Below, one piece after another: positions 5,297-49,584 of a stretch of DNA of 64,000 nucleotides. Each line of letters begins with the position of its first letter. Positions within the stretch are counted from its first letter, which is position 1. The notes under the pieces were generated by a model. It was not told the DNA's origin. It was given only the letters and a program-made list of their open reading frames with translations, and ran no database searches. Origin of the DNA: Eledone cirrhosa (taxonomy: Eukaryota); assembly GCA_964016885.1 (NCBI GenBank), contig OZ024740.1:47616001-47680000 (forward strand), given 5' to 3'. Both the position numbers and the translations under genes were made by a program.

Positions 5297-5605
5297 TAAG
5301 TTGTTAAACAATATTCGATGATTATGTCAAAGAATGAGTTTTACAGTAGATTGGAAGCACTCAACGAAAAAATAATTTTCAGGAGTTATTAATATTAAAA
5401 TATAAGTATTAATAAAATAGATGTTCTTTTGATCAATTACATTTTATTATACATATTTCGGATGTACAACAGTACGTCCTCATCAGACAAAATATAATGA
5501 TACATGACATACCCTGAGATGTTAAATGGTTACATCCGAAATATGTATAATAAAATGTAATTGATCAAAAGAACATCTATTTTATTAATACTTATATTTT
5601 AATAT
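5297..5605 (-). mobile_element. 5'-truncated Penelope-like insertion with inverted pLTR in (TA)n
   Basis: Inverted arms ~5392-5465 / 5531-5605, unpaired ~95-nt extension on the left, (TA)n on both sides, hammerhead inside. Confidence 0.7.
5436..5498 (-). ncRNA. Minimal type I hammerhead ribozyme
   Basis: Minus strand: AUUAUAUUUUGU CUGAUGA GGACGUAC-UGUU-GUACAUCC GAA AUAUGUAU A^AUAAAAUGUAAU; 12-bp stem I, canonical core. Confidence 0.88.
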
Positions 5606-6433
5606 ATATATATATATTTATTAAAATAACAGATTAAAGTTTAAGCAAAGAATCGCTGCTTTCACCCTTAACGGGATCTTCTGAAACTATTATTATTACT
5701 ATATATATATATATATATATATATATATATATATATATATATATATATATATATATATTATGGAATACTGTTGGCTTTTTGCTACAATGTTTTCTATACC
5801 TTTCATTTATATATATATATATATATATATATATATATGTGTGTGTGTGTGTGTGTGTGTGTGTGTGTGTGTGTGTGTGTGTATGCGCACACACACACAC
5901 ACATATATATATCTGACAACACATACATGAGCCTAAGGATTCACATCAAACTCCTTTTTAGACGCATGGGGTGGCGCGCATTCCACGACGACAAAAGGAC
6001 CCACCAACATGCACAGGATAATCCTCACGACCGCCTCAAATGGATCTTTAAATCCAGACGACCTCAGAAAAGGCTTGAGCTCTGCCGTGGGTCAGATTTT
6101 TTCCTATGTGTGTGTGTGTGTGTATATATATATATATATATATATATATATATATATATATATGTATATATACGTAATTGTATGTGTGTGTGTATTTCTG
6201 TGGTTGTGTTTTTGTGTGTGTGTGTGTGTGTATATATATATATGTGTATGTGTGTGTGTATACGTATATATGTATAAGGGTGTATGTATATGCATCATTA
6301 CATATAGTGATTTAATGATTATTTTCATTGATCTTTTACTCCAGGAACTTGTTGAGTGCTCTAAATCTGCTATAAGCATTTATACCCTTTTCTAAAAATA
6401 TTTTTTTTTTATTTATTATTTGTCGTATTCCCA

Positions 6434-6625
6434 TTTTATTTTTATTTTTATTTTTATTTTTATTTTTATTTTTATTTTTATTTTTATTTTTATTTTTATT
6501 TTTATTTTTATTTTTATTTTTATTTTTATTTTTATTTTTATTTTTATTTTATTTTTATTTTTATTTTTATTTTTATTTTTATTTTTATTTTTATTTTTAT
6601 TTTTATTTTTATTTTTATTTTTATA
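6434..6625. repeat. (TTTTTA)n simple repeat
   Basis: Direct reading. Confidence 0.95.
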
Positions 6626-6969
6626 TATACAATATTTATTTTCTTTTATATATATATATAATAATTATGTTCTTTCTCATATATATATATATATATATAT
6701 TGAGTTATATATGTATGTCTGTGTATGTGTGTATGTACGTATACATACGTATGTGTATGTATATATGTGTGTGTAGGTATATATGTGTATGTGAGTATGT
6801 ATGTATGTGTATGTGTATATATATATATATATATATATGTATATATATATATATATATATATATATATATATAGAGAGAGAGAGAGAGAGAGAGAGAGAG
6901 AGAGAGAGAGAGAGAGAGAGAGAGAGAGAGAGAGATTACATGAAACAAAGTTCTGTTTAAAACAATTAT

Positions 6970-7018
6970 TTGCTTACAATTGTTTCTTCCAAACCGAGGT
7001 TTGGAGTCTTCGGAGCAA
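6970..7018 (-). ncRNA. Minimal type I hammerhead ribozyme (CCGAAGA core variant)
   Basis: UUGCU CCGAAGA CUCCAAACC-UC-GGUUUGGAA GAA ACAAUUGU A^AGCAA; palindromic stem III; lies ~35 nt from the microsatellite end of the insertion. Confidence 0.75.
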
Positions 7019-47679: not shown

Positions 47680-48345
47680 CATCATCATCATCATCATCGT
47701 TTAACGTTCACTTGTCACACTAGCATGGGTTAGACAGGCTGTCCCATTAGAGGCAAATTGGGTCAGGTGACCGTGTCTTGCTCATATAGGACTGTTTCTG
47801 GTTAGATTACTACATCTAGATGCCTTTCCTAATGCCAACCACATTTACAGTGTGGGCTGGGGCTTTTTGTAATACTAACATAACTTTACAGTGTAAGGGT
47901 GGTGGGGACAGAAGTGGAAGGGTGGGTGTAGAGGCATGGGGGTGTATGGAAGGGGGTATAGTGGTTAAGAATTGCCTACTATATGAATGCTTGAGTCTGT
48001 GCGTATGGGGTGGTGGATCTTCTGTATTACTGCATAATGCCAAAGATCTCAATCCTGTGTCATTTTTGAGAAGTACAATTGTGCAAGGTCAGCTTTTATC
48101 ACCTTGTCCCAGGTCTTTCGACACCATAGCTTCTCAATTTTGATAGCCCTGCACATTTTTATACAGTGGTCATCCTTCATACACATCACATGACCATACA
48201 AATGCAATCTCCTCTCTAGTTTATTGCATCTGATTCTTCTTATGCCTAATTTCTCTCTCAGTTCATTTACACTTTGCCGTTCGTGTATATACTATTACAC
48301 ATCTATTGGAGCATGCATGCTTCATTTCTTTCCAATCTTCTCAGA
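47680..48345 (-). mobile_element. RTE LINE 3' fragment with tail
   Basis: Reverse complement of the 11975-12685 type. Confidence 0.75.
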
Positions 48346-48520
48346 TAATATCTATGTATATGCATATGTATATTATATAAATATATATATATATATATAT
48401 ATGTGTGTGTGTGTGTGTATGTATGTATATATATATGTATGTATGTATATATATATATATATATATATACATATACATATATATATATATATATATATAT
48501 ATATATATATATATATATAT

Positions 48521-48755
48521 ATAAGGAAAAAAGATGAAATCGAAAATGCAACTGGAGTCTTTTTAAGAATATTTATTTGGTTCCTTTACCAGTTTTGCAG
48601 TTATTGTGCTTTTCAAAAGTAGAATTGAGATGAAGGGTTTGTGGTTTTTCTCGCAATTGCATTTTCGATTTCATCTTATTTCCTTATACTTTCACTTATG
48701 TAGGACATCGCGTTTTTTTTTCATTTTGTAAAAAAAAAGAAACCTCATTTTCTAA
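48521..48755 (+). mobile_element. Short copy of the 12868-14373 PLE family
   Basis: Same gatgaaatcgaaaatgcaactggagtc arm and same tail; decayed hammerhead. Confidence 0.75.
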
Positions 48756-49487
48756 TATATATATATATATCCGTGTCTTGCTCATGTAGAACTGTTTCTG
48801 GCTAGATTTCTTCTACAGCTGGATACCCTTCCTAACACCAACCACATTTACAGTGTGTACTGGAGACTTTTTGTCATGACTTCTATACAACCACTTTACA
48901 TATATATATATATGTGTGTGTGTGTCTATGTATATATGTCTATGTATCTATATATATATATAAATATGTATCTATATATATATATGTCTATGTATCTATA
49001 TATATATATATATGTGTCTATGTATATATATATGTGTCTATGTATATATATATATATAAGAAAGTAAGTCCATAGAATCATTAGATAAAATATATACAGT
49101 ATTTCTTCTGCCAATCAGCATAATCAACCATACAAAAAATCATTTAAATGAGGCTATAAGTTTAAAATATACTTATGAAGAAATAATAGATAAATAAATG
49201 ATAGCTTTTTATCCACGATTCACAGCCACAGAAAATTTACCTAGTATTTCTGATAGCCTGTAGAAATTGACTAGACATAGCTAACCATACATAATTAGGT
49301 ACAAAATCAAAGTTAGAAGAAAAAATGTACATAAACATACCAAAATCATCAAAATATATCTCTACACCTTAATATATATGTGTCTATGTATATATATATA
49401 TGTACACATGTATATATATATATATATATATATATATAATATGTTAGGGAACAAAGAATCCATGTTGCATCATATACATATTCAATT

Positions 49488-49584
49488 ACATATTACATAT
49501 GTTTCACACAGCTGCCGATCAGCTTGAGGAACAATCGATTAATGATCGATCCTGACTCTGGAATTGGAAGCTCCTCAGATATGT
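49488..49584 (-). ncRNA. Type I hammerhead-like motif with enlarged stem II
   Basis: ACAUAU CUGAGGA [~65 nt] GAA ACAUAUGU A^AUAUGU, ~50 nt from a (TA)n junction. Confidence 0.65.

Follow-up and report, generated by a model that had tools for sequence, protein, structure and literature searches.

The window analysed here is the whole 64,000-nt stretch at positions 47,616,001 to 47,680,000 of contig OZ024740.1 (assembly GCA_964016885.1) of the octopus Eledone cirrhosa, an AT-rich sequence with abundant (TA)n, (TG)n and (TC)n runs. Among these runs lie hammerhead ribozyme motifs of ten families (A to J) and two coding remnants of Penelope-like elements (PLEs), namely a near-complete element (K) and an endonuclease associated with family I (Table 1). 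The ten families are very probably unrelated minimal type I hammerheads, most of which represent truncated PLE 3' ends, i.e. pseudo-long terminal repeats (pLTRs), located in (TA)n or (TC)n, while family F is likely to be a retrozyme.

Table 1. Positions of hammerhead motifs, inserts and PLE coding remnants in the window.
Feature	Position	Strand	Description
Insert A	5297-5603		Minus copy with (TA)n at its end, opposed head to head by a partial plus copy; ~99-nt one-sided tail
Family A hammerhead	5436-5498	-	CUGAUGA; 12-bp stem I; 8-nt self-complementary stem III; predicted cut after 5448; 29.6 bits
Family B hammerhead	6970-7018	-	U4C core; 7-bp stem II behind a C.A mismatch; 5-bp stem I; 26.6 bits
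Family C hammerhead	9051-9111	+	Top site, 32.1 bits; 12-bp stem II; odd palindromic stem III
Insert D	12872-14373		301-nt inverted arms (97%) flanking an 845-nt GT-rich non-coding middle
Family D hammerhead, inverted copy	12932-12969	-	U3-A8 core; 20.2 bits
Family D hammerhead	14199-14236	+	U3-A8 core; copy bearing the 77-nt tail
Family D dispersed third copy, decayed	48583-48619	-	
Family E hammerhead	14545-14615	-	Long stem II; 8-bp stem I; copy with ~98-nt tail; 25.7 bits
Family E hammerhead, other arm	14734-14804	+	Perfect 167-bp palindrome centred at 14674/14675
Element K, near-complete frameshifted PLE	14843-21679	+	Reverse transcriptase (RT), CX4CXXC linker, C-terminal GIY-YIG, tandem pLTRs
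K pLTR weak hammerhead candidate	21408-21445	+	U3-A8 core; 4-bp stem II; 2 stem I pairs after U.U
Family F	24428-25727		396-433-nt unit; approximately two tandem minus copies and one inverted plus copy
Family F hammerhead 2, intact	24652-24694	-	Predicted cut after 24658; 27.2 bits
Family F predicted cut-to-cut monomer, 396 nt	24658-25053	-	Circular fold -119.3 kcal/mol, 67% paired
Family F hammerhead 1, intact	25048-25090	-	Predicted cut after 25054; 27.2 bits
Family F hammerhead 3	25410-25452	+	G8A; 3-8 pair broken
Family G hammerhead	25832-25863	-	Exact core; truly minimal stem III (4 nt); 2 stem I pairs; 18.8 bits, E 0.13
Family H hammerhead	26492-26528	-	U.U and 2-bp stem II; 3-bp stem I; GUU triplet; 17.9 bits, E 0.22
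Family H inverted copy	26534-26566	+	Stem I lost at inversion junction; 12.6 bits
Family I hammerhead	27458-27502	-	C3G core; 17.5 bits, E 0.30
GIY-YIG endonuclease remnant, second PLE family	27713-28066	-	5'-truncated; 30% identical to that of K
Family I inverted copy	28337-28381	+	Same C3G core; 403-nt arms; 58-nt tail
Family J	49488-49584	-	Exact core; 6-bp stem I; 8-nt palindrome; 20.6 bits, E 0.035; atypical

Individual sites are named by the first base of core box 1 and by strand (e.g. 9058+), and residues are given in hammerhead position numbering. A strict descriptor, demanding the 3-8 pair, at least three pairs in each of stems I and II, GAAA, a self-complementary stem III and an NUH triplet, identified nine sites in the window (six families, A-F), as compared to means of 0.13 and 0.17 in two sets of 60 local shuffles (maximum 2) and none in the reversed window. 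When a long or 2-bp stem II was allowed, 11 sites were found versus approximately one in shuffles, and when the stem III requirement was dropped, 11 sites were likewise retrieved versus 0.3 (100 shuffles). Stem III was self-complementary, from A15.1 to U16.1, in nine of these last 11 sites and in 5 of 30 shuffled matches; as the palindrome is common even where it is not demanded, it is not an artefact of the filter. Additionally, stem I exceeds the three pairs demanded by 9, 2, 4, 1, 5 and 3 pairs in the six strict families, an excess with a chance probability of approximately 1e-10. A log-odds scan, with weights of our own choosing and calibrated on 200 shuffles, returned 15 sites of at least 17.5 bits, distributed over all ten families, where 0.295 were expected. 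These sites comprise 13 of the 14 copies listed in an earlier sequence-only reading of the window together with 9058+ and 25416+; families A, B, C, E and F score above every shuffle, and J and D are borderline (window E-values of 0.035 and 0.05, respectively).

It is extremely improbable that chance folding of DNA rich in AT and palindromes accounts for the motifs, although several results do weigh in that direction. A relaxed descriptor could not be separated from chance (34 sites versus 20-23 in shuffled sequence and 28 in the reversed window), the log-odds scan of the reversed window yielded one site above the threshold, at 23.5 bits, and J sits in AT-palindromic sequence. Families G, H and I (25861, 26525 and 27497) are singly not significant, with window E-values of 0.13-0.30. 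Furthermore, no Rfam match was obtained in the window at the gathering threshold, the Rfam hammerhead families gave none at E<=10 around 9058, 25861/26525 and 25084, and E-value Rfam scans returned microsatellite and hairpin noise, with no hammerhead or twister row among the best 150 of 238 matches. Folding z-scores of whole single motifs are weak (-0.4 to -2.2). Three further candidates (22811+, 26742- and 21215-) were dropped as non-significant. Set against this are the excess of strict sites (9 versus 0.15) and of scored sites (15 versus 0.3), the undemanded palindromes described above and the orientation of every site upstream of a microsatellite. A chance origin is refuted for the set and is possible for J, G or H taken singly; families G, H and I rest on context. 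In a comparison with shuffled sequence of the kind that the sequence-only reading had proposed for the whole genome, made here on the window, the strict descriptor stands clearly above chance and the relaxed one near it.

That reading had listed at least nine hammerheads. The motif is indeed present at all nine places and the set lies far above chance, but its quality is uneven, with eight of the 14 listed copies (5486-, 7013-, 12965-, 14203+, 14607-, 14742+, 24688- and 25084-) passing the strict test. The copies at 26525- (a 2-bp stem II with a 3-bp stem I) and 49578- (a stem II region of 66 nt with two closing pairs) pass looser limits only, the pairable stem I ascribed to most of the motifs is lacking at 25861- (two pairs) and 26535+ (one pair), and in 27497-/28342+ position 3 is occupied by G and the centre of stem III is mismatched. 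The list was also incomplete, having missed the best site (9058+), the G8A copy of F (25416+) and the decayed copy of D (48616-). Three families deviate from the CUGANGA core that it had described, by U4C (7013), by a U3-A8 pair (12965/14203) or by C3G (27497/28342), while the others carry it. The core boxes CUGANGA (or a 3-8 covariant) and GAAA, followed by U16.1-H17, are present in A-H and J and are disrupted in family I, 25416 and 48616. A helix I of at least three pairs and a helix II are found in A-F, H (minus copy), I and J, with G, 26535 and K falling short in helix I; the 66-nt stem II region of J can pair with its own core. Exact cores with 6-12 stem I pairs occur in A, C, E and F. 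Six families have intact folds and four are doubtful or broken.

The surroundings of the motifs follow a common plan. For each of the 17 copies in the ten families, a TA/AT or TC/CT run of at least six units is found 64-252 nt downstream, whereas the background for such a run within 270 nt is at most 0.34 of positions, in the densest part. The tie of each motif to (TA)n that had been claimed holds in this wider form only, as 7013- (with (TC)n 78 nt downstream) and 12965- meet (TC)n first and the TA-rich stretch of F is internal to its repeat unit; the family G hammerhead is 119 nt from (TA)n. The claim that flanks differ between families was upheld, the best of 55 cross-family comparisons of 3' flanks scoring 23, equal to the shuffled 99th percentile (23), with a within-family control at 69. 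A B-D flank score of 77 was discarded, as it was caused by (TC)n left in the flanks and was gone after trimming. Head-to-head inversions are seen in six of the ten families (A, D, E, F, H and I) and in element K, and B, C, G and J are single copies. The inverted copies are near-identical (96-100%), and six of the seven inverted pairs carry a one-sided 3' tail of 38, 58, 67, 77, ~98 or ~99 nt (the 67-nt tail on the minus copy of H), F being without one. The plus copy of insert A starts inside stem II. The two copies of family I are identical at 192 of 194 positions (98-99%) and have C3G in common, which suggests that the core of the donor may already have been dead.

This plan resembles what has been described for PLEs. 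According to the parts of PMC8557442 drawn on here, inverted 5'-truncated copies and a one-sided tail of 30-40 bp are PLE hallmarks, the tails in the window being longer (up to 99 nt). The supplement of that paper, as excerpted, describes PLEs of the Hydra clade that target (TA)n and bear, close to the 3' end, a hammerhead in which U.U at the base of helix II and U17 are frequent, and includes octopus PLEs targeting (TA)n, among them Hydra-1_oBim of O. bimaculoides with a hammerhead ~100 nt from its end. The (TA)n target and a hammerhead ~100-200 nt from the 3' end are common to these elements and the present inserts, the stem III of Hydra-1_oBim is an odd palindrome like that of 9058, and U.U with U17 recurs in family H. 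Unlike in the Hydra clade, the endonucleases of both coding remnants in the window are of the CCHH type, and the linker of K is CX4CXXC, as in Neptune/Nematis; no Hydra-type open reading frame (ORF) turned up in the window, although no dedicated search was made. The excerpted text of PMC4209133 reports minimal metazoan PLE hammerheads as solo copies or opposite-strand pairs 100-700 bp apart, with U3-A8 as a natural covariant, great variety within a genome, low in vitro activity and up to ~9,000 copies per genome, molluscs (Lottia and Crassostrea) being listed. The present motifs share with these the type I topology, the palindrome around positions 15-16, a short helix I, the extra base after A9, the U3-A8 variant, the prevalence of solo copies, the opposite-strand pairs and the many unlike families per genome. 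They differ from strictly minimal hammerheads in their longer stem III palindromes (6-9 nt in most families) and, relative to the counts in that source, in a higher local density of ten families in ~45 kb. Minimal PLE hammerheads, including that of a (TA)n-targeting octopus PLE, are already in print, and the assignment of the inserts to PLEs is well supported but not new.

The coding remnants provide a more direct link. Element K possesses an inverted 5'-truncated copy, a 38-nt tail and (TA)n at its 3' end, and its linker, located in the ORF at 19437-19913, fits the CX2-5CXXC motif that precedes GIY-YIG in Neptune and Nematis. With the C-terminal endonuclease-bearing PLEs of that type K shares the RT, the Zn-finger-like linker, the C-terminal GIY-YIG, the tandem pLTRs, the inverted 5'-truncated copy, the tail and the microsatellite flank, and differs in that its own hammerhead is atypical or absent; the placement of K in that clade is putative. 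The second endonuclease remnant (Pfam 24.2 bits; E 4e-29 against a two-protein profile) has two relatives among proteins and none among viral contigs, and the family I hammerhead follows its stop codon by ~215 nt. A similar arrangement was found in a marine metagenome contig (L001), the one related locus examined among 268 candidate stretches, in which an endonuclease 55% identical to that of K is followed, ~100 nt past the GIY-YIG stop, by a textbook minimal hammerhead (986-1028). The PLE reading is direct for one family (I) and architectural for the others.

Certain findings nevertheless argue against this assignment. No PLE coding remnant was detected near the other nine families by tblastn with 25 queries and two profiles, so that the linkage of flanks to PLE RT or GIY-YIG genes anticipated by the sequence-only reading was obtained for one family in ten. 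Only D has a dispersed copy within the window, and we therefore infer the family status of the rest. In the sole near-complete PLE, the pLTR hammerhead candidate (which also occurs at 16168+ and 15370-) was rejected as non-significant (13.3 bits, E 2.7). As a separate observation, two copies of a small family (24137-24195 and 27180-27241) break off at a TA run immediately behind a core box and GAAA, and their opposite strand has 14 letters in common with this K candidate; the copy at 27207 has a minimal palindrome and UC at its end, i.e. exactly at the would-be cleavage site, though both motifs (24164+ and 27207+) lack stem I and were dropped as non-significant.

The scarcity of coding sequence would also be expected if most stubs were whole short non-autonomous elements (hammerhead short interspersed elements (SINEs) or retrozyme monomers) mobilised in trans by PLE proteins. 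In its favour, family F already appears non-autonomous, 1279 unclassified SINE families (250 Mb) are present in O. vulgaris according to the excerpted parts of PMC13282606, and a 2026 preprint (10.64898/2026.07.22.740005), as far as its text is drawn on here, derives retrozymes from pLTRs. We consider this explanation unlikely, however, as the 3' flanks of A, D, E, G, H, I and K are ordinary in structure (z -1.3 to +0.5; -2.3 for C and -3.4 for F), the 5' ends are ragged inversion junctions, one of them within stem II, and Chlamydomonas PLE insertions with a median of 128 bp result from plain 5' truncation (excerpts of PMC9977147). The proposal that the inserts are debris of many PLE families is thus upheld by their architecture, the one GIY-YIG link, L001 and the 190 PLE families (191 Mb, 6.83% of the genome) reported for O. 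vulgaris in the same parts of PMC13282606, except that F is better accommodated as a retrozyme. That such debris makes up much of the apparently unique spacer was an overstatement, since the hammerhead inserts amount to ~6.1 kb of the 64 kb (rough bounds), nearly all between 5 and 29 kb; together with K they occupy ~20% of the window (rough bounds).

Under truncation of PLE ends, the inserts would have arisen by curtailed reverse transcription of PLE 3' ends followed by insertion into (TA)n or (TC)n microsatellites. Reverse transcription would initiate downstream of the hammerhead, at either of two sites, which may account for the one-sided tail; in the excerpts of PMC11167929, the PLE tail corresponds to the distance between two RT start sites in vitro. 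The template RNA would be uncleaved, as suggested by the copying of whole cores, and this copying is in line with the Anolis PLE of the same excerpts, in which C3G abolishes cleavage, hammerhead mutants still insert and cleavage needed protein. An early stop would then leave a stub of 100-1500 nt per family with the ribozyme as a passenger. Regarding the start of the reaction, the element's own sequence matches the adjoining (TA)n or (TC)n in phase over a further 4-7 letters at six of seven testable 3' ends (5603, 12872, 14834, 26598, 27304, 15142 and 21679, in A, D, E, H, I and K; a post hoc test), and 36 of 886 flank positions offer such a run. These ends fit priming by short pairing to the target, a possible mechanism that would differ from the non-homologous start reported for the Anolis PLE in PMC11167929. 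The same picture would result if the sequence between an internal ATAT and the flank had been deleted afterwards, or if the repeat had grown out of that seed. A literature search found no paper on microhomology priming of PLEs, and the string 'microhomolog' is absent from PMC8557442.

Family F stands apart from the other inserts. It is an ORF-free unit with a GC content of 35%, its copies are 97-98% identical, and it shows an intact type I hammerhead in two consecutive units at a spacing of 396 nt, in agreement with the tandem test applied (an ORF-free unit of ~150-450 bp with such a hammerhead in each of two neighbouring units). The predicted circular fold of the monomer is far more stable than that of shuffled sequences (-82.8 +/- 5.2 kcal/mol; z -7.0, 0 of 100 shuffles), and remains so with the AU-rich hairpin held fixed (z -5.1) or with both hairpin and hammerhead held fixed (z -5.6; 0 of 80 shuffles), while eight control stretches, three of them PLE ends, gave z-values of -2.1 to +1.4. 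Of 18 substitutions between copies, 11 fall at unpaired positions, five keep and two break a pair; the seven at paired sites are fewer than expected (P 0.013). In the model, long-range helices close the circle at the cut site, unlike in the pLTRs of K, I and D. Helix I has six pairs and extends beyond an internal loop, and the sequence of loop 2 is AAUA; mussel retrozymes, in the literature excerpted, lack most of the loop 1-loop 2 contacts of canonical type I hammerheads. If transcribed, the two intact tandem hammerheads would cleave as a dimer to yield a self-paired 396-nt RNA able to circularise. The fold constrained to the cis dimer was computed at -137.7 kcal/mol, versus -138.8 for the free fold and -135.2 for two monomers (rough values, the forced dimer costing ~1). 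The dimer cleavage envisaged by the sequence-only reading would be possible in cis in F alone, the other paired copies being on opposite strands.

These properties are shared with the retrozymes of PMC7229834 that lack long terminal repeats (non-LTR retrozymes), which in the parts drawn on consist of tandem 170-400-nt units giving rise to self-paired circles (mussel units measuring 350-390 bp) and which are likewise ORF-free and low in GC with a type I hammerhead per unit. The axolotl HHR_Amex2, as excerpted, also has a 2-bp helix III and U.U at helix II. We consider it probable, though by no means assured, that F is an element of this non-LTR retrozyme type, which may have been moved by PLE machinery as a non-autonomous element. 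In contrast to known retrozymes, F consists of a dimer plus an inverted copy and contains an internal TA-rich hairpin. Several features speak against its retrozyme nature: its pairing (67%) is below the 70% quoted for retrozymes in the excerpts of PMC4918200, a long read-through transcript would have hammerhead 1 tied up by the inverted third copy, and there are only two tandem units. The U.U mismatch was dropped as a retrozyme mark, being common to Hydra PLE hammerheads. The F core motif had no exact match in viral or prokaryote contigs. Among sequence data sets searched with the stretch 23820-26590, three contig sets of one organism contained ~0.7 of its words and no RNA data set was listed; small shares in other organisms were left out of account. 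Alternatively, F may merely be a pLTR copied three times in one PLE insertion, with no circular RNA, which appears a less probable but serious contender. Tandem and inverted copies are usual in PLEs, and the close identity of the copies and their small number would suit such an origin; conversely, it does not readily explain the missing one-sided tail, the self-pairing throughout the unit with helices that close the circle at the cut, or the size and low GC, which suit retrozymes.

For the remaining families a working ribozyme seems doubtful. In A, D, E, H and I the paired copies face apart, such that a transcript would contain one sense hammerhead and a near-perfect antisense arm of 63-403 bp, and copies on opposite strands do not form cis dimers. 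Most stubs would be silent as ribozymes because single copies have no dimer partner, inverted pairs would form hairpins and several cores are broken. Most of the motifs are likely to be inert and most sites are likely to be passengers rather than a working repertoire. A role retained by the host, e.g. in cutting transcripts of a nearby PH-domain gene, is highly unlikely. Six families do have intact cores and a host exon of a sesquipedalian-like PH-domain gene lies at 32629-33294 (98% identical to an Octopus sinensis and 91% to an Argonauta protein), but the near-identity of inverted copies indicates recent insertion, orientation is mixed, and intact and broken cores stand side by side. If transcribed, the foldback inserts (5398-5599, 12861-14307, 14508-14841, 24428-25727 and 27300-28539) would give long double-stranded RNA, which in a cephalopod would be a likely substrate of RNA editing.

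Further features of the window were recorded. Two further small families of hammerhead-free stubs, 50-70 nt long and terminating in (TA)n (5760-5807 and 23722-23773; 24354-24419 and 28653-28718) are likely PLE ends truncated downstream of the hammerhead. At 26689-26998 a PLE-stub-like 135-bp foldback with a 10-nt spacer and a longer left arm lies between TA runs, with neither a hammerhead nor an Rfam match. Additional inverted repeats, resembling miniature inverted-repeat transposable elements or transposons and lacking hammerheads, are located at 23886-24055, 29073-29617, 40664-43958 and 54195-54372. A Tc1/Sleeping Beauty-type transposase remnant is present at 23135-23668, and a long interspersed element RT with zf-RVT at 55418-57088 (minus strand) is accompanied by an 85% direct repeat (55212-55366/57065-57219). 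The GC-rich frame at 21822-22442 resembles the C-terminal restriction-like endonuclease of a non-LTR element and has no Pfam match. Finally, a 30-bp tandem array of 34 copies (3504-4620) has open frames, one of which, a decapeptide repeat decaying towards its end, may be coding.

As to the size of the ribozyme repertoire, nine strict sites per 64 kb would correspond to roughly 1e5 in a 2.8-Gb genome, a back-of-envelope figure drawn from one enriched window (~20% inserts and K versus 6.83% genome-wide) and from the annotation of another species. A very large octopus repertoire is plausible; if ~1e5 were true, it would be near the highest count in the literature compared, in which, as excerpted, more than 6,000 hammerheads of 16 families are counted in a coral and ~120,000 in axolotl. 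The label 'uncatalogued' given by the sequence-only reading is accurate with respect to Rfam, though the class and one octopus member are in print. Our search of the literature on octopus and cephalopod hammerheads, ribozymes and retrozymes found neither a genome-wide survey nor a cephalopod retrozyme, although supplementary species tables could contain one, and ribozymes are unmentioned in the excerpted parts of PMC13282606. The most far-reaching scenario, to which we accord little likelihood, less than to the non-autonomous origin of the stubs, is that octopus genomes hold ~100,000 hammerheads from well over 100 PLE families, invisible to Rfam, that F self-cleaves to a 396-nt circle, and that PLEs prime by pairing 4-7 bases with (TA)n or (TC)n, possibly with telomerase-like extension of the microsatellite.

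As the class is known, no model is changed and the use of these findings is practical. A ribozyme descriptor sorts unannotated octopus spacer as PLE ends where Rfam and protein searches are blind, and natural variants occurring side by side (U3-A8, U4C, C3G and a long helix II) could serve to test whether PLE hammerheads need cleavage. Further work would best be directed at the retrozyme-like F and at the short matches of element ends to target repeats. Family F is a concrete and cheap target, with a predicted 396-nt circular RNA in a lineage for which the literature search found no retrozyme. The matches bear on how microsatellite-targeting PLEs prime reverse transcription, and target priming by 4-7 bases, if true, would be a step unseen for the one PLE studied in vitro.

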